Below, piece by piece: positions 2,373 to 22,751 of a DNA stretch of 64,000 nt. The first letter of the stretch is position 1. The number at the start of each line of letters is the position of its first letter. Position numbers and translations under genes: made by a program. The notes under the pieces are model-generated. The model ran no database searches and was not told the origin of the DNA. It was given only the letters and a program-made list of their open reading frames with translations. Source of the DNA: Callorhinchus milii (lineage: Eukaryota); contig NW_024704772.1 of assembly GCF_018977255.1 (NCBI RefSeq), forward strand, positions 3,100,001 through 3,164,000. The letters are read 5' to 3'.

Positions 2373-4157
2373 TCATGACCTAGAGACCAGCGTGTGCTGG
2401 TCAAAGAGGTATTCGGCCACGCCCAAGCTCTGCCCAGCGCCCAGCGATGCCAGGCTGCTGCTGTAGTCTCCCAGCATCTGCACCGTCTGCACACAGTGGC
2501 TCAGGAACCGCGAGGCCAGGAAGTCACACAGCTGCAAACAACAAGGTGGGAAGTTCTGTAAACGCTTCAGGAATTACTGTATCCGGTCTCCTGCTCAGCA
2601 CAATCATCCGACACAGGGTACAACTTGAGTGGGTGGGTGAGTGAGGGAGTGTGGGAAGTGAGGAGTGAGAGAGTGAATGAGAGAGAGTGAGTGTGGGAGT
2701 GAGGAGTGAATGAGTGAGAATGAGTGAGAGAATGAGTGAGAGAGAGTGCGGGAGTGAAGGAGCGTGGGAGAGAGTGAGTGAGAGCGTGGGAGTGAGTGAG
2801 TGAGCGAGCGAGTGAAAGAGAGAGAGCAAGAGAGAGTGAGGCCACATACTTGAGGATCATTCCTGTCGGCAGCGAGGTGGTGTAGTTCTTGGAGAGACTG
2901 GTTGAGGGATTTCTGTAATTGCAGAGCACACTGCAACGCCTCCAGTCCATTCTGCCACTCACTCTGGGCTGGCTTCTGCGTGAATAAAACAGCTCAGATC
3001 ATATCACGGTTGGCAGAGGGGGAGAGGGAGAAAAACATGGCCTTGCAGGGCTGTTAATAATAACAATAATCCTCACATATGATACAGGCCTTATCAGGTC
3101 TTCGAGAAGTCTCAAAGCGCTTCACAGGATGTACTGTAAAGTGCAGTGACTGTATACTTTGTGGGTGAAACGCGGCAGCCAATTGCGCACAGAAGCGTCC
3201 CCACAAACAGTCGCGGATTGTGTGGCCAATTTATTCTTTTTTTTTAGTGATTACCCCCGGAAAAGCGATCCGCCAATCGACTAACAACCGGGTTCCTTTC
3301 TGGGTAAACAGAGGCGCGTGTGTGTGGGGAGGAAGGAAACTTGCCCAATGTTTCGCCCCGGCCCGGGAATTGAACACAGGTTTCTCGCTTGCGAGGCGAG
3401 TGTTCTAACCACTGAGTTCCAGGACTAATGAGATGACGCACATACCTCAACGCTCTGCAGGTACATTCTCCCCCCGCGCCTCTTCTGATAGTCGATAAGC
3501 TCCTCGGCGGCTCTCCGTTCAGCTTCCGACATCCCGTGGAAAAACCTCGCAAAATGTTTCAGTGCTACATCATCACGTTCAAAGAAGAATGACTGGAATG
3601 AGAAGTAATCATTAGAGACAGTAAAGCTCCCTCTACACTGTGTGTCCACACTCCCAGGTCAGGGGTAGAGACACAGTAAAGCTCCCTCTACACTGTGCGT
3701 CCACACTCCCAGGTCAGGGGTAGAGACACAGTAAAGCTCCCTCTACACTGTGCGTCCACACTCCCAGGTCAGGGTCAGACACAGTAAAGCTCCGTCTACA
3801 CTGTGTGTCCACACTCCCAGGTCAGGGTCAGACACAGTAAAGCTCCCTCTACACTGAATGTCCACACTCCCAGGTCAGGGTCAGAGAGACAGTAAAGCTC
3901 AATGCATTACATTTACACGGCGCCTTTCACATCGGGAGGACGTCCCAAGATGCTGGTCTGCCAACAATTTGGACTCGAGCTGGGGGTTGGGATTAGGAGG
4001 GGTGGAGGGCAGGGAGGTGCAGTAACGTTAGCTAAGTGCTGGAGAGGTCACTCACCATAGCCAGGTACACGTAGGACGTGTAATACTCCTGGTTTATGAG
4101 CCGATTGATTGCTCTCTCACAGTCCGGGCAGTAGTTCTGTCTGATCCGAGACTCCAT
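2373..4157 (-). CDS. Ferritin paralog A, divergent, ferroxidase-deficient (177 aa, 4 coding exons)
   Basis: Exons 4157-4056 (102 nt), 3592-3446 (147), 2975-2850 (126) and 2531-2373 (159, with TGA), all GT-AG and phase 0, matching the vertebrate ferritin layout. Protein: [177 protein letters not shown]. Minus-strand AATAAA at 2135-2140. Confidence 0.93.
3058..3426 (-). mobile_element. tRNA-derived SINE copy
   Basis: Reverse complement of the same head, body and tail; lies in an intron of ferritin A. Boundaries approximate. Confidence 0.85.
3611..3901. repeat. Minisatellite, about 52-53 bp unit, about 5.5 copies, in an intron of ferritin A
   Basis: Near-identical direct repeats of ACAGTAAAGCTCCCTCTACACTGTG(T/C)GTCCACACTCCCAGGTCAGGG, with no unique spacers. 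Confidence 0.95.
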
Positions 4158-8640: not shown

Positions 8641-8675
8641 ACCAGTTTAGAATAGACAGCTCAATATTTTAGGCC

Positions 8676-8704
8676 GTTCTTGCTTCAACAGTGTTTGAAC
8701 GGAA
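8676..8704 (+). promoter_or_regulatory. Iron-responsive element (IRE) in the 5' UTR of ferritin B
   Basis: GTTCTTG-C-TTCAA-CAGTGT-TTGAA-CGGAA: C bulge in TGC context, perfect 5-bp upper stem TTCAA/TTGAA and a CAGUGN loop. Confidence 0.96.
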
Positions 8705-8794
8705 TAGCGCTCAAACTGCTCGGAGAATTTACCCCTCGCTGTCTTCCTTCCTACTCTTTATTGCTCTCTTGTGCGACTGCAAAGCAGATCAGAC

Positions 8795-11550
<2,756 letters not shown>

Positions 11551-14028: not shown

Positions 14029-15291
14029 TAGCAGCCAAAGCTTTTAGTGGAGTTTTGAAACTAAGTGGTGAGGGCGCGAAACAGAGGGTTTTAAGGAGGA
14101 GAGTAGTGGTTCAATGGCTGAAAACCTGAAGATAGGGAGCAGATTGTGAGATAAAAGCTGCTCGAGACAATAGGATTCAGAGCTGCAACCGAACAGGAGT
14201 GACTTTGTGCTGTGAGGAATGAGTTGTTGGGACCCTGGGAGGCAAGATGTGAATAAGAGGAATTGGTCAGGAAATTACACAGCTGTGCTGAGGTCCATCC
14301 TGAATGCAGTGTAAAGATAGGGCACAAGACGACAGCTATGCTGCCCCCCAATGGTTAGAGACATCCCACAGATTAAACAGTTATGTTTCTATACTACAAT
14401 AGAGGAATAAATGGTTAGGCAACTCACAAAGAGACGCATTTCAACACTGACTTGATGGGCCAATTCAGTGCTGTAATAGTCTATAATTCTGAGAATCGGG
14501 GAGTCCTGTAGTGAAGTGGTTAGCACGCTTGCCTCGCAAGGGGGAGGACCTGGGTTTGATTCCCTGGCAGGACAAAATGTTAGGCAAGTTTCCTTGCTCC
14601 ACACGCCTCTACCTAGCACTAAGTATGAGCCCAATTGACTGATCTCTTTTCCGGGAGCAGTAATCCTTTCAAAAAAAATTATAATTTGCGTCACTCAATG
14701 TAGTGACTGTGCATTTCGCCCACAAAATACGACTGTGAAGCGCTTTGAGACGTCTTGATGACATAAGGCGCTGTATCAAATGCAACAATTATTATTATTA
14801 TTCTAAGATGGAGGTGAGATTTCAGGAGCCGTGGAGTTCTCAAAGGAACTCCAGTTCTTTCTGCATCGCTCCCTTGCCCAGTTAGATAAGACTCTGATCC
14901 TTTGTTGTGGATCACATAATAAGTCAGAGGCAAAGGTAAAGGTAAAGATGAAACAACTTTTATTTGGGAGCTGGTTTAAAGCCTGGCTTCTGCACTGTAC
15001 ACTGAGCCCAGAGGTTAGTCAAGAGATTTACTCTTATCTGGTCTTTTCAGCCACATTTGTGCGTTATTGGTCAATGTAGTTGAAAGAGGATGGGAGAGGT
15101 AGATTAGCCTTTGAACTCACAGCAAAATGGCATCCTTTTCAATTCCACTTGGCTTTACTTCTGAATTATTCTGCCGTGTGCCGTTTCCCCCATTCAGTGA
15201 TGTAGCTAAAAGCCAGATGGGCTGGCGCATGCAACTAAGAGCACGAGACACACATATCCAGGTGGAATATTTGCACACTCAGCCACGAGCC

Positions 15292-18191
15292 TCACTTCTC
15301 CTCTTGCCCCAGGGTGTGCTTGTCGAACAGGTACTCTCCCAGGCCACTGTCAGAGGCTCCCAGCCGCATCAAGTTGGTGATGTGGTTTCCGAATTTCTTG
15401 ATGGCTTCAATTTGTTCCTCCAGGTAGTAGGACTCCAGGAATCCGCACAACTGAAAGAACACAAAACACACAGTCACTACACTTTACTCTATGAAGCGCT
15501 TTGAGGTGTCTCAATGCCGTGTTAAGGTGCTATATCAAATTCAACCATTATTATTATTATTAGCATGGACATCATTTGAGACACCAAATTCCATCAACGA
15601 GGCACCCGGTGTAATGTTAAATAGAAACAGTAGGCTCTAACAAAGGCGGGAGAGGGACGCTATATAAATGCTCCCCATCCCTCAGAGGATAGAATTCAAA
15701 ATCCTCGTCCTCACTTTCAAGGCCCTCCACGGCCTTTGCCCCTCTCTGACCTGCTAAGCCCCTATCAATCTATCCCCTCCCTCCATTCAGCAGCCTCCGG
15801 CCAGCTCCATGTCTCCCGCCCAACCATGGGAGTCTGGGCTTTCAGCCTCTCTGGCCCTAACCTGTAGAATTCCATCCGACAATCCCTTCGCCTTGCTCCT
15901 TCCGTTGCCCGCTTCAAGGCCCTCCTTTGCGATTATGCCTTCAGCCGCCCTCCTACCCTCTCTGCCCTCCCTCATCCCAACCCTGCCCCCCCCCACGCTT
16001 GGGTCTCGATCCCTGACTGTTATAAAATCTTCAGAAGTCAGCAATGGTGTTGTTTCTCCCCATCACCCCCTTCAATTCACTGACAAACCTAAAAGTCTGA
16101 GCTGACACTTTACTTAGATGTCCAGGAGTTTGTAAATGAGAACCCTTCACTGCATGACACCCAGGAAGATAGACAGAGAGAGAGAAAGAGAGAGGTGGGG
16201 AGGATGTTTTGGATTCAAACACACACTTACACTGGGGTCGTTCTGTTCAGAGGCTAGCTTATGCAGCTGCAGGAGACTCTTGTTCACATCTTTCTCCAGC
16301 TGCAGAGCTTTCTCCATCGAGTTCAGGCCATTGCCCCACTCATCCCCCGGTTTCTAAAGCAAACATACAATTCCATTAGAAAAGGGGAGAAAAAAAATTC
16401 AAGGACAATCTCAATCCAAGAACACTATCTCTGACATCCCCGGAGATTAACATTACATCAGTGTGGACAACAACAACAAATTACATTTACACGGCGCTTT
16501 TCATGTCAGGAGGACATGACATCAAAGGGGCTGGACAGTCAGGGATCCGCATCCGAGCTGGTGGTTGGGATCAGGAGGGGGTGGAGGGTAGGGATAGGAG
16601 GGTGACTAAAGGTATGGTCGAAGAGGAGGATCTTGAGACGGATCTTGGAGGAGGCAAGAGAGGGAGGCGGAGGGATTGTGGGATGGAGTTCCAAAGGCTG
16701 AACTTCTGACCAACGAAGCTAGGTTCATACACAACAAAGAAAAAAAACCAAGCAATTGGGTACGGGGTAGAAAGGAGGTAGGGCTTCCCATTACTGACCT
16801 TAATGTCCTTCAGCACAAGGCGCCCCCCTCGCCGATTCAGGTAGTTCACCAGCCTCTCTGCGTGCTCGTGCTCCTCGTCTGCCTGCTTCTTGTAGTACGT
16901 TGAAAAGTTTTTCAGAGCGACGTCGTCTCGGTCAAAGTAATACGACTGAAAAGAGAGAAAGGCGGCGGTCGGAAAATGAGCTTCATCAATGCCAAAACGT
17001 TGTAATGACCTCTGTGACCTCCTCACCCCTACCAACCCGCCCGCTCCCTCCGCTCATCGAGCTCCGACCTGCTTCACGTCCCCCGCCTTGCCCGCCCCAC
17101 CATGGGCGATCGGGCCTTCAGCCTCTCTGCCGCCATGCTCTGGAACTCCATCCCACAGTCCGGCCGTCTCGCCTGTTCCCTCGCCTCTTTCAAGGCCCAA
17201 CTCAAGACCCTCCTCTTCAACCGCGCCTTCAGGCACTCTCCTAACCTCCCCCCTCCTAATCCCAACCCCCAGCTCGGATCCAAATCCCTGACAATCCGGC
17301 GCCCTGGGACATCCTCCCGACGTGAAAGGCGCCGTGTAAATGTCATTTGTTGGTGGTGGTGGTGGTCTGCTGAGGGTATCAGGGTGCGGATGTGAGGGAG
17401 TGACCGGGTGTGAGGCGGTGACCGGGTGTGAGGGAGTGACCGGGTGTGAGTGTGAACAAGGGAGTGACCGGATGTGAGGGAGTGACCGGGTGTGAGTGCG
17501 AACGAGGGAGTGACCGGATGTGAGGGAGTGACCGGGTGTGAGTGCGAACGAGGGAGTGACCGGATGTGAGGGAGTGACCGGGTGTGAGTGCGAACGAGGG
17601 AGTGACCGGATGTGAGGCGGTGACCGGGGTGTGAGGGGGTGACCGGGGTGTGAGGCGGTGACCGGGTGTGAGGTGGTGACCGGGTGTGAGGCGGTGACCG
17701 GGTGTGAGGGAGTGACCGGGTGTGAGGGTGTGAGGCGGTGACCGGGTGTGAGGGAGTGACCGGGTGTGAAGGTGTGAGGCGGTGACCGGGTGTGAGGGAG
17801 TGACCGGGTGTGAGTGTGAACGAGGGAGTGACCGGATGTGAGGCGGTGACCAGGTGTGAGGGAGTGACCCGGTGTGAGGCGGTGACCGGGTGTGAGGGTG
17901 TGAGGCGGTGACCGGGTGTGAGGCGGTGACCGGGTGTGAGGCGGTGACCGGGTGTGACACACTCACCATGGACAGGTAGGTATACCTGGCGTTCAGCTCC
18001 ATGTTGATCTGCGAGTTGATGCCCTCCTCACAGGCTGCCGAGAGGCTCTTGATGCGGCTCCGTCGCGCGGGGCAGCCGCTCCCTTCGCCCCGCCGCCCGA
18101 CCCAGGCGATGCCGGGCAGGGAGGGCGGCGGCCGGAGGAGGGAGCGGCCGGTGAACACCAGGAGCGGTCGCCATGCCCGCAGACTCCCCAT
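15292..18191 (-). CDS. Ferritin paralog C with an Arg-rich N-terminal extension (putative mitochondrial ferritin precursor, 217 aa, 4 exons)
   Basis: Exons 18191-17967 (225 nt), 16945-16799 (147), 16353-16231 (123) and 15450-15292 (159, TGA). Protein: [217 protein letters not shown]. Ferritin identity is clear; the start codon is inferred. Confidence 0.9.
15685..16022 (+). mobile_element. L2 LINE 3' fragment
   Basis: Reads [17 protein letters not shown]..., a degenerate L2 ORF2 C-terminus. Confidence 0.75.
17000..17366 (+). mobile_element. L2 LINE 3' fragment
   Basis: [19 protein letters not shown]...[11 protein letters not shown], followed by the 3' stem-loop and a (TGG/TTG)n tail. Confidence 0.8.
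17385..17957. repeat. G-rich minisatellite (about 18-nt core GTGAGG(G/C)(A/G)GTGACCGG(G/A)T) in intron 1 of ferritin C
   Basis: Roughly 25-30 tandem units starting a few nucleotides inside the exon 1 donor. Confidence 0.95.
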
Positions 18192-18199
18192 GTGACTGA

Positions 18200-18500
18200 T
18201 CTTTTCGCGCCTCACCCGCGCGCTCGGCCTCCCGCCTCCGGCCGCCCGCGCTGATTGGTCAATCCCCCCCCTCACGTGGTCAGAGTCAACAAGCGGCCCC
18301 CTCGTCACGTGCTCTGCCTCATGACGCGCTGATTGGTCAATTCCCGCCCCCCCCCCTCACACACGTGGTCCGAGTCAACCCGCGCCCAAACCATCGCCAC
18401 GTGCTCTGGCTCCCGCGCTGATTGGTCAGTGTCAACAAACGGCCCAACCGCCGACGCACGCGAGCGGCCCTTCCTCCACGTGACCCCACCAACGCCCATG
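18200..18500 (-). promoter_or_regulatory. CpG-island promoter of ferritin C with triplicated CCAAT/E-box modules
   Basis: GCGCTGATTGGTCA three times (ATTGG at 18254, 18332, 18421) and CACGTG five times (18273, 18306, 18362, 18398, 18477). No TATA box seen. Confidence 0.7.
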
Positions 18501-19970
18501 TGATGCCGGGTTGGGTCGGGTTGGGCGGGTTTCACGCCCAACTGGGCGGTTTTGTGTGGCGAAGCTTCACATTGGGCTACTTTTGGGCTGGCGTCTGGCA
18601 GGAAAGATAGAAAACAGGGGGAGGGGGGGGAGGCCATTCAGCCCCTCGAGCCCGTTCCATTCAGATCATGGCTGATCTTGTACCTCACTGCAATTACTCC
18701 GCATCCCTTGAAGCCCTGACCTGACAAATACCAAGTCAATAGCTGTGGACTTTGGGCTACAAACATATTGGGACACACGTCCAAACCCAGGGGGCAACCG
18801 AGGCAAGTTGGTGCCCACGGGAACAAGCCATGGCGACCAAGAGCATCCCGGGACCCGCAGGGGCAACCGAGACGAACGGCAATCTGGCTTTCTGGCCCCC
18901 GCCTCGCTGGAACTCCATCCCACAGCCCCTCCGCTTCACCCCTCCCTCGCCTCCTCCTCTTCGAACGACCGCATCTTTGGTCACCCTCCGACCCCCCCCC
19001 CACCCCACCCCACCCACCCTCCATCCCTGCCCTCCGCCCCTCCCGATCCCAACCCCCACCTCGGGTGCAAATCCCTGACCGTCCAGCATCTTGGGACGTC
19101 CTCCCGCCGTGAAAGGCGCCGTGTAAATGCCATGTGTTGTGATGGGTCCAACGTACCAGCTCGCGTTTCGCCCACAAAATATACAGTCAATTCGCTGCGG
19201 TGTATCCCGTGAAGCGCTTTGAGACGTCTCGAAGACGTGATAAGGCGCGATATCAAATGCGAGGAGTGTAAAGTGTAGTGACTGTGTATTTTGTGGGCGA
19301 AACGCGGCAGCCAATCGCGCACAAACAGTCGTGGATTGAGTGACCAAATTATTATTTCTTAAATTTGTTTTGGAAGGGAAAGCAATCCACCAATCGACTA
19401 TCAACCAGGTTCCTACTTACTGTTGGGTGAACAGAGGCGCGTGTGCGGAGCAAGGAAACTTGCCTAAGGTTTCGCCCTGAGCAACAACAACAACAACAAC
19501 AACATGCAGTTGCTGAACAGGAGCGCCTAAAGGGTAGCCCTGCCAAGCCAACTGGATGCTAACGAGTGGTTAACTCGTTAGATCCCACTGATAGAACCGC
19601 AAAGAGTTAACCTGCTCTCTCCCACTGCTGTCTTGTCAGAAACATTTTGGTGGAGCAGTTGGGCTCTGTGCTCGGAAGGTTAGATGTTTTTGCTCTGTTG
19701 CACCTTCAGTACGAAAACGCAGCAAGTTAAATACAGCCTCGTTGCAGCCTAGTCTGTCTGTCGTACTATCTCTCCTGCCCAATAGTCGACCTCCGCCCTT
19801 TAAGGCATCATTTGACCAAAAGATTATCTTCCGCCCTTCAGCTTTGCGGGACGAGGCAGGCAGGCGGCGGCGGCGGGGAGGGGTGTGTGGGGAGAGGAGG
19901 GGGGGGTGTGTGGGGAGAGGGTGGGGGGAGCTAAACAGCCAGCCAGCCATTCGGAGAGACAACCCGCAAC

Positions 19971-22751
19971 ATGTCAGACAGCAAAGATCAGAGCACCGTA
20001 CAGACCGGGGAGAAAGATGGCGAGGCACCATTGGAAACAGCCTGCGACCAGCTCAAAGCAGCCATGGAAAAGTGGTAAGCCTTCGACTCAGAACACCGGA
20101 ATCGTATCGATGACCATCCTCCGTCCCTTGTGGAACAACGGTTGACATTTTGAAACCCTCCCGATAAAATGGAGCTGGTTTGTAAATCTCTCGGTGCTAA
20201 TATAATATTAATAATAATAATCCTTGCATTTGATATGGCGCTTTATCACATCTTCGAGACATCTTAAAGCTCTTCACAGAATATAATGTAATGCGTAGTG
20301 ACTGTATATTTTCCGGGAGATATGTTTTGTTAAAAAAAAGGTCGTTGGGAGAGTGCAGTCGGAGAGAGCAGGGGTCTTGTCTGTTTGAGCAGGAGCATTC
20401 CTGTGGCTACATGTCTGTTATGTCACTCCCTCAAACCCTCCGGGAGACACACACACCCCTACCCTATACATGCGTGTATGCACACACATACTCAAATCAT
20501 ACACATGCATTCCACCCATGCCCCCCCACCCCACACACACACACACACCCCTACATGCATGTGTGCACCACGCACAAACATACGCACGCACCCCTACTGT
20601 AAACCTGCTGTGTGCACATATATGCATGCACGCACACACACATTCACATCCTTCACATCCAATACACTCAATAAAACACAATCATGCGGAAACACACTGG
20701 TCTGCGCAAACACTGCCACAATCCACGTACACCGCACGCCTGTGAGAGTGAAACCGTCCTTGAGATGTCGGGGAATAAGGCCCTTAATAAGAAGAATAAT
20801 ACTTGCATTTGATATTGTGCCTTATCACGTCTTCGAGACATCTCAAAGCGCTTGACTGTGTATTTTGTGTGCGAAACGCACCATCTATATTGCAGCTTGC
20901 ATCTATACAGCGCCTTTCGCACACAAGAAATGCCTCAAAGCGCTTTGCAGAGAGATTAATTAGAAATGAATAGATCCTGGTTATGGAGACAAACCCAGCA
21001 GCTGGTGTATGCCGGCAATATTCCCACAAACTTATGAGTTCTCTCATAAGCAAAGATCAGGGAAATGAATATAATAATCCCTTGCATTATTATTGTGGGG
21101 GCGAAATTCCTTACTACACACACACGCACCTGTCTGTTGACCCAGCAGTAAGTAGGAATCCAGTTGTTAGTTGATTGGCAGATCGCTCTCCAGGGCTAAT
21201 AATCCCTCCAATCACTCAATAAAATGGTCACTCAATCCACGGCTGTTTGTGGGGACGCTGCTGTGCGCAATTGGCTGCCGCATTTCGCCCACAAAATACA
21301 CAGTTACTCCACTTTACAGTGCATCCTATGAAGCACATTGAGACGTCTCGAAGACGTGATAAGGCACGATATCAAATGCAAGGAGTACTATTGTTAGATA
21401 CAGCACCTATAGTGTCTCAAAGTGCTTTGCAATAATTATTGTCAACCGTTGTCAACATCCAATTTGCTCTCACGGCAAAGGACCATTTATCTGGAGGCTG
21501 AGATCTGGACAAAGGAGTCACCCACTTGGCATTAACGGGTGATTTGCTTTCTTAAGGTGGAACATCTCGCTTGAAAATATCCCCGACCCTGTGAAACAGA
21601 GGCTAACATTTTTTTTTGGGGGTGTTGGGGGTCAGCTGGACGTCTGACACACGCGGAAACCCATCACCATTACTTAAGACTCTCCAAACCGAGCTGAGAA
21701 TGTGCGTTGGGATGAACTGCTGGAGTCTGTCCAAGCTTTCCCCATTGCTTGCAGCTGCTTTGCTTATCTTACACTCCCTCGGCCTCCAGCCCCTATCCTC
21801 CCCCCTCTCCTACCCCCCGCTACCGCCAAAGGCAGGAGGGAGAGCTCCCCGCCACACCCACAGACAACTCTACTCCCTGGCTCAGCAAGCGGGCCCCAGG
21901 CTGACTCAGCAAGCCCGAGCTCGTGCAACGAGAGGAATCCAGGCCGTGTTGTTTTTGCCCGTTTCACGGCTGGCCGAGCGAGCGCTGCCATTGTGTGGGT
22001 GCAGTGAAGCCAAGCGGTGACTGGGCACAGTTCCCGGCCAGGTTGGGCGCTGGGCTGATATTCCACAGGGGCCCCGAGAACTTCCCGGTATAATAATAAT
22101 AATAATAATAATAATCCTGGTATTTGACCCAGTGCCTTATCACGTCTTTGAGGCGTCTCAAAGCGCTTCATGGGATACACTGTAAAGTGGAGTGACTGTG
22201 TATTTTGTGGGCGGAGCGCGGCAGCCAATTGTGCCCAGCAGCGTCAGTATCGCTTTTCCAGGGGTAATAATAATAATCCCTTTTGATCAAAAATTGGACA
22301 CTCAATCCGCGATTGTTTGTGGGGACGTCGCTGGGCGCAATTGGCTGCTGCGTTTCGCCCCCAAAACACACAGTCACTCCACTTTGCTGTATATCCTGTG
22401 AAGCACTTTGAGACGTCTCAAGGATGTGATAAGGCGTTGGGTCAAATGGAAGGCTTATTACTTAGTTATTATCCTCTGGGGATGGAGAGGATGGGACAAG
22501 GGCTTTTCCTGGGGGAGGAGGAAGGAAGGAAGGAAGGACGGAAGAGAGGGAATACCTGTGGGATTTGCTTCGGTGGTGGTGGGGGGGGGGGAGAAGAGGG
22601 GAGAAGAGTTTCCCCTGGGACCAGCTTCCGACGCCCGCTAACGCTGGCGATTTCTTTCGTTTCCAGCATCACAACAAAAGGCGAAGAGAGTTGCGAGGCG
22701 GCAGCCGCAGCTTACAGGGACTGTATGAAGAGGTTAGGGTTTAACGTGTAG
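19971..22751 (+). CDS. COX17-like twin-CX9C protein (62 aa) lacking the Cys-Cys copper site
   Basis: Exon 19971-20074 (AAC-ATG start, ends TG|gtaagc) joins exon 22667-22751 (tttctttcgtttccag|C...TAG); the phase-2 junction rebuilds a Cys codon. Protein: MSDSKDQSTVQTGEKDGEAPLETACDQLKAAMEKCITTKGEESCEAAAAAYRDCMKRLGFNV*. The C-terminal half aligns with COX17 (human [28 protein letters not shown], from memory). A further donor GTGAGC lies at 22757, just after the stop. Confidence 0.85.
21635..21705 (+). repeat. Unclassified dispersed repeat
   Basis: TCTGACACACGCGGAAACCCATCACC...TTAAGA(C/G)TCTCCAAACC recurs at about 23085-23180, 44060-44150 and, inverted, 60530-60655. Confidence 0.65.

Follow-up and report, generated by a model that had tools for sequence, protein, structure and literature searches.

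Introduction

FTMT, the mitochondrial ferritin of mammals, is described as having neither introns nor an iron-responsive element (IRE) and as having homologs in mammals (PMC8393899). Two further papers also call the mammalian gene intronless (PMC11719527, PMC13207978), and a fourth states that human FTMT has no TATA or CCAAT box and no IRE (PMC5022048). Mitochondrial ferritins of plants and Drosophila are portrayed, in PMC8393899, as intron-bearing and of a phylogenetic origin unlike that of FTMT. According to a preprint, Ser144 is invariant in mitochondrial ferritins and is proposed to be essential for their special chemistry (bioRxiv 10.1101/2025.03.31.646379). Other reports present the teleost M chain as orthologous to mammalian L (PMC4117605) and Arg23 as a contact of NCOA4 (PMC11719527). 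Literature searches, whose coverage of subscription journals was small, brought up no account of a mitochondrial ferritin in sharks or chimaeras. Here we describe a ferritin gene of the chimaera Callorhinchus milii, located at 18191-15292 on the minus strand of a 64,000-nt window (the whole stretch analysed, positions 3,100,001 to 3,164,000 of contig NW_024704772.1). Its product begins with an N-terminal leader and probably represents a chondrichthyan-wide mitochondrial ferritin whose origin was separate from, and convergent with, that of FTMT.

The leader ferritins resemble FTMT in their Arg-spaced, acid-poor leader of similar length and hydropathy and in their intact ferroxidase centre; the C. 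milii gene also has no IRE and a CpG-rich, TATA-less upstream region. Unlike the intronless FTMT gene, the C. milii gene has three introns and lies in a tandem ferritin array. Furthermore, the leader ferritin clade is separate from the H-chain clade that contains FTMT, Ala144 and Glu or Gly131 stand in place of the Ser144 and Asp131 of FTMT, and the C. milii gene has CCAAT boxes that human FTMT lacks. Drosophila Fer3HCH and the plant mitochondrial ferritins, which differ from the leader ferritins in lineage, offer a precedent for repeated origin, a likeness drawn from their published description. Like fish and amphibian M chains and vertebrate L chains, the leader gene is non-H in trees and has four exons, and it shares their setting in that it adjoins two ferritins, one of 176 aa with an IRE and one of L-like type. 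However, M- and L-chain ferritins are cytosolic and have the usual Met and an IRE, whereas this Met is missing throughout the leader clade and the IRE is missing in C. milii.

Results

A four-exon ferritin gene with an N-terminal leader

The gene comprises four exons and three introns, all on the minus strand, and its open frame encodes 217 aa. Coding exon 1 (18191-17967, 75 codons) specifies the leader and the start of helix A and holds E27 and Y34. Exon 2 (16945-16799) holds E61, E62 and H65 and agrees with the RefSeq protein P0001, exon 3 (16353-16231) holds E107 and is one residue shorter than in the paralogs, and the coding part of exon 4 down to the stop (15450-15292) contributes Q141, A144 and a Gly at position 131. 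Hence, all seven ferroxidase ligands are kept in the product, as a previous reading of the window, made from the sequence only, had stated. The second and third joints, between exons 2 and 4, rest on the RefSeq protein, the contigs described below having been placed on 17955-18640 only. The 3' untranslated region (UTR; 15291-14957) carries AATAAA at 14964-14959, and its end was obtained by subtraction from a 1026-nt contig. A tandem repeat of period 18/36/46 (17387..17957, no strand assigned) fills most of intron 1.

The product lacks a Met where ferritins usually start, and none occurs between residue 1 and Met64 (position 18002). Reading on from an in-frame stop near 18357, the first ATG in frame is that at 18191. 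It adds a leader of 44 codons (18060..18191, minus strand), a candidate mitochondrial targeting peptide with 8 Arg, no Lys and a single Glu. We found no YAG acceptor within the leader DNA, the nearest ones being located at 18198 and 18037. An Rfam scan of this species detected no IRE at the leader ferritin gene; the IRE_I of its neighbour ferritin B, which served as a positive control, was recovered with 42.8 bits. Our results therefore uphold what the sequence-only reading had said of the start, the leader, the acceptors and the IRE.

The public models of the C. milii protein are wrong at their 5' end. RefSeq XP_042201066.1 (154 aa) is identical to residues 64-217 and starts at the internal Met 18002, so that it lacks the leader, and UniProt A0A4W3GPJ9 takes intron-1 sequence (16946-17030) as the N-terminus.

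The leader on a spliced contig and its upstream region

Contigs from four of 12 listed sequencing runs (X1-X4), all presumed by guess to be RNA, were aligned to 17955-18640; none of the 12 is recorded as RNA. In run X2, contig 4, with a length of 1026 nt, agrees with 17967-18228 without a single difference and then runs on into the beginning of exon 2. It spans ATG 18191 and a further 37 nt upstream, thereby defining a minimum 5' leader (18192..18228, minus strand) in which Rfam finds no IRE, and its length fits an mRNA end at about 14957, just beyond the AATAAA at 14964. Run X4 belongs to a different study and uses the same splice donor, 17967. Run X1 yielded low-depth contigs at 18117-18290 and 18305-18578, and run X3 yielded no contig on 17955-18640. 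Across this interval, the contigs show no joint or loose end within exon 1 and hence no sign of an alternative first exon. The leader is present on the transcript as far as these contigs show, in agreement with the proposal that transcription begins upstream of 18191, although such contigs can fix neither the transcription start nor the expression level.

Upstream of the contig lies a promoter-like region of putative function (18254..18482, minus strand), recognized by motif scan. It has no TATA and a CpG observed/expected ratio of 0.92, and contains CCAAT at 18425, 18336 and 18258 and CACGTG at 18482, 18403, 18367, 18311 and 18278. One low-depth X1 contig bears a 2-nt deletion at 18347 and a 10-nt deletion at 18507 in the promoter region, each either an allele or an error.

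Leader ferritins in sharks and rays

Leader genes were found in 12 elasmobranch species, with leaders of 24-60 aa. At least 11 leader proteins from sharks and rays occur among the best 120 of 1276 matches (Cetorhinus, Heptranchias, Pristiophorus, Mustelus, Narcine, Chiloscyllium, two Scyliorhinus, Pristis, Hemitrygon and Rhincodon), and a search of representatives added the skate Rhinoraja as the twelfth elasmobranch. The Rhinoraja database model has 48 extra residues upstream and was cut at the homologous Met for comparison. Shark orthologs are labelled "ferritin heavy chain-like" or similar in the database. Used alone as a query, exon 1 gave no match at E<=0.001 among 90 candidates, and exon 2 gave 9 matches of 18 candidates, none of them an ortholog.

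The usual-start Met is missing in 13/13 leader ferritins. As in C. milii, the leader starts with MGSL in 9 of the 12 elasmobranchs (MGRL, MGSR and MASL in the others), and MG is found in 11/12. Leaders of differing lengths are all in frame, and their mean pairwise identity is 44%; since acidic residues make up 0.6% despite this divergence, composition has been kept even as the sequence drifted. Ferroxidase ligands are complete in 11/12 orthologs, and the twelfth model, that of the skate, skips exactly the exon-3 region, implying that introns are located there too. In four of the 12 species, the leader gene and an ordinary ferritin are found on contigs of equal size, which suggests a conserved ferritin cluster in those species.

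Conservation in 12 elasmobranch species, together with the spliced contig, places the leader beyond chance. Furthermore, as these species share the leader, the gene is, by its distribution, older than the chimaera/elasmobranch split, and the event is not confined to C. milii.

These data also bear on whether the leader is translated at all. If it were an untranslated 5' UTR, the protein would begin at Met 18002, as in the 154-aa RefSeq model, or would be nonfunctional. Besides that model, this explanation could call upon the leader DNA, whose GC content of 80% makes an open frame likely by chance, and upon a second, out-of-frame ATG at 18174. The latter has a stronger Kozak context, opens a 48-codon open reading frame overlapping the leader (18174-18028, minus strand) and could divert ribosomes; its presence had been noted before, at a distance of about 16 nt that we correct to 17 nt. 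However, Met 18002 lacks conservation, 11/12 orthologs having Gln, Leu or Arg in its place, and a protein begun there would be without the first half of helix A. In contrast, the upstream Met and the MGSL start are conserved, and leaders of varied length all remain in frame. We therefore regard an untranslated leader as very improbable.

Composition of the leaders and targeting class

Taken together, the 13 leaders contain 4 acidic residues out of 607 (0.6%), with 15.7% Arg and 18.0% Leu, versus about 5% acidic when the other upstream extensions found in the matches are counted (1320 residues); the 13 rows are related by descent and are not 13 independent tests. The presequence-like composition is significant only across this set. 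A hidden Markov model built on the elasmobranch leaders gave the C. milii leader 12.5 bits, a score attained by 50 of 2000 shuffles. Near the end of the leader, RR[GA] was observed in 10/13 leaders, where cleavage is only suggested. In C. milii, this motif is RR-G at residues 33-35 (18087..18095, minus strand), a candidate R-2 processing site with predicted cleavage, and the sole acidic residue, E36, comes right after it. This conserved candidate displaces the RR-S at the junction with the ferritin fold that had been singled out earlier, the site actually used being predicted in either case.

We next considered other destinations. Maximum 11-residue hydropathy ranges from 0.94 to 1.80 in the leaders and from 0.80 to 1.92 in five FTMT leaders, versus 2.32 to 3.03 in three unnamed signal-peptide-like controls that were chosen by eye. 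An endoplasmic reticulum signal peptide would make the product a secreted ferritin of serum or yolk, on the pattern of insects, whose ferritins bear signal peptides (PMC13207978), and several orthologs do have a Leu-rich stretch at residues 4-14, with a best 8-residue hydropathy of up to 2.36. However, the leaders fall within the FTMT range and below the three controls, their hydrophobic stretch is broken by Pro, Gly and Arg, and acidic residues are avoided along the whole 24-60 aa, whereas the first acidic residue of the controls is found at 19-21. Secretion is thus improbable.

Slightly less probable still is an uncleaved membrane or lipid anchor, in which N-myristoylation at Gly2 and a basic patch would hold the protein at a membrane, possibly the mitochondrial outer membrane. 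Gly2 occurs in 12/13 leaders, and the PROSITE myristoylation pattern fits 6/13. Yet the pattern fails in the other 7/13, Ala2 follows the homologous Met in the skate ortholog, and the +4 G of the start context likewise comes from the Gly2 codon. Finally, the nonapeptide of peroxisomal targeting signal 2 (PTS2) was found in 0/13 leaders, and a peroxisomal PTS2 protein was rejected on this ground.

A post-hoc filter (Met start, leader of at least 20 aa, no internal Met, at most 2 acidic and at least 4 basic residues) reduced 286 collected proteins to 28, namely the 12 elasmobranch proteins, 11 that are named FTMT or belong to FTMT-named clusters, and 5 others. P0150, P0164, P0259/P0278 and P0276 are ferritins of invertebrate appearance whose leaders are basic and acid-poor, and one of these clusters is named from the slug Arion vulgaris; it is possible that they are further independent mitochondrial ferritins. 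Residues 1-56 of the ortholog P0017 gave one weak lead (0.76, in a cluster of mostly plant ferritins) that was not counted.

Phylogenetic position of the leader ferritins

Trees were built on the ferritin core only, without the leader. In a careful tree of 36 rows, the C. milii gene and 10 elasmobranch leader genes form one clade (98/86), which falls outside the H clade (99/94), while two FTMT proteins lie within the amniote H chains (100/99). A constraint joining the leader genes with FTMT cost 37.8 log-likelihood units and was rejected (p-AU 0.012). In a quick tree of 43 rows with invertebrate outgroups, the C. milii gene again grouped with the elasmobranch leader genes (86). Orthology with FTMT was therefore discarded, given three introns versus none, a position outside the H clade, the rejected joint clade and Ala instead of Ser at 144. 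The separate clade, the three introns and the array point to a probable convergent origin, presumably by tandem duplication and not by retrocopy, as the sequence-only reading had proposed.

The quick trees of 75 and 43 rows give little resolution at the base of the non-H ferritins, and for this reason the duplication cannot be dated after the chondrichthyan split. This leaves room for an intron-containing mitochondrial ferritin that was ancestral in jawed vertebrates, lost in bony vertebrates and rebuilt in mammals from an H-chain retrocopy. Against such a history, the leader clade is sister to an elasmobranch 176-aa group in the careful tree (93/82, not starred). In addition, no leader protein of bony fish, lungfish, amphibians or sauropsids was found among the best 120 of 1276 matches, and none was recognised among the best 150 of 4040 representatives, few of which are named; both absences are weak. 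On balance, we consider an ancestral origin unlikely, though less so than secretion or anchoring.

The ferritin cluster and neighbouring genes

Two other ferritin genes lie in the window. Ferritin B (8675..11550, plus strand) encodes 176 aa with a normal Met start, has an IRE at 8675-8707 and keeps all ligands, with Asn at position 131. A C. milii GenBank entry named "ferritin mitochondrial" (P0052) has 176 aa and no leader and is 99% identical to ferritin B; it was therefore ruled out as an earlier record of the leader gene. Ferritin A (2373..4157, minus strand; 177 aa), in which the Rfam scan found no IRE, is an L-like subunit on a long branch, with four ferroxidase ligands replaced (E61A, H65A, E107Q and Q141C). 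An H-like ferritin gene is located on a different contig, C17. Other ferritin-like matches (L004, L005, L006 and L008) lie on C4, C6 and C17; L004-L006 have the usual Met start, and no further ferritin motif was found near L008.

Head-to-head with the leader ferritin gene, 1.8 kb apart, is a two-exon COX17-like gene (19971-22751, plus strand; Pfam COX17, 26.5 bits, over the cut-off). It keeps the twin CX9C and has a single Cys at the position of the copper-binding Cys-Cys pair of canonical COX17. A second COX17 match occurs on contig C4, so the gene at 19971-22751 could be a paralog that has diverged. Further neighbours, at 27400-33839 (minus strand), 45945-47618 (minus strand) and 54138-63281 (plus strand), are CHMP2A, UBE2M, a gene with a ZP domain and one of the importin-13/transportin-3 type, and a glycogen synthase gene is found on the same contig as the cluster. 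The linkage of CHMP2A, UBE2M and glycogen synthase resembles the human chromosome arm that carries FTL.

Discussion

The leader ferritin is not an ortholog of FTMT, but a protein that likely works as FTMT does, and its leader is likely a cleavable mitochondrial import signal. We infer a matrix presequence from established presequence properties. It is the best reading because the leader is basic, acid-poor, length-variable and Arg-Arg-ended, and is borne by a ferroxidase-competent ferritin that has neither a cytosolic start nor an IRE.

Several observations weigh against this interpretation. First, ATG 18191 and the splice site are bridged in only one of the four runs, all of them RNA by guess; the X4 contig stops at 18066, short of the ATG, and the X1 contigs may derive from DNA, from pre-mRNA or from a longer leader that contains upstream ATGs. 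ATG 18191 has C at -3 (CACATGG), and leaky scanning via the stronger out-of-frame ATG 17 nt downstream may lower output. Second, 70% of 20000 shuffles of the leader DNA remain open, and 31% of the open ones reach at least 8 Arg with at most 1 acidic residue, so that the C. milii composition lies within chance and the compositional argument, as first made for this species alone, carries no weight. The hydrophobic moment is at least 7.0 in 11/13 leaders (6.9-7.5 in FTMT), a range shared with several controls; the observed value is attained by 15% of shuffles, and some controls reach 10-11, which means that the moment fails to separate leaders from controls (of the 21 control rows, 2 had been wrongly trimmed to 6 residues, and several were not FTH1). 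A single-species argument from composition and hydrophobic moment was thus ruled out. Moreover, the leaders have 18% Gly and 5% Ser, versus 6% and 13% in FTMT leaders, and R-3 and R-10 motifs are present in only 2/13 and 3/13 leaders, respectively.

The phylogeny and the core residues add to these points. The 75-row quick tree joins 11 elasmobranch genes (99) and leaves the C. milii gene outside, as a long branch beside invertebrate rows with weak support (78), and the branch of the C. milii gene is long (0.47-0.53). Position 144 is Ala in 13/13 leader ferritins and Ser in 3/3 FTMT rows. Position 131, which has a role in iron entry, is Glu in 12/12 elasmobranch orthologs and Gly in C. milii, where it may slow iron entry. 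Loss of Arg22, the NCOA4 contact that PMC11719527 numbers Arg23, is seen in C. milii and 5/12 orthologs and was discarded as a diagnostic feature since it also occurs in leaderless ferritins.

A mitochondrial ferritin could have arisen here as follows. A tandem duplicate within the non-H (M/L-side) ferritin cluster would be the source of the leader gene; before the chimaera/elasmobranch split, this duplicate would have shed its IRE together with the Met of the usual start and acquired an ATG further upstream. The first 20 or so residues, rich in Leu and Trp with spaced Arg, would engage the TOM/TIM import machinery, and the leader would be cleaved off behind the RR-G/A motif by the matrix peptidase. 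Mature subunits would then form a 24-mer with ferroxidase activity, which would buffer the iron of the matrix free of control by the IRE and iron regulatory proteins (IRP).

The finding corrects public gene models, as RefSeq and UniProt truncate or mis-start the C. milii protein. A gene shared by chimaeras, sharks and rays would be more than 400 million years old. If our interpretation is true, the leader ferritin would represent a second vertebrate origin of mitochondrial ferritin, by tandem duplication of a non-H gene instead of retrotransposition of an H gene, and, being devoid of Ser144, it would be a natural case in which to test the requirements of a ferritin in the matrix.

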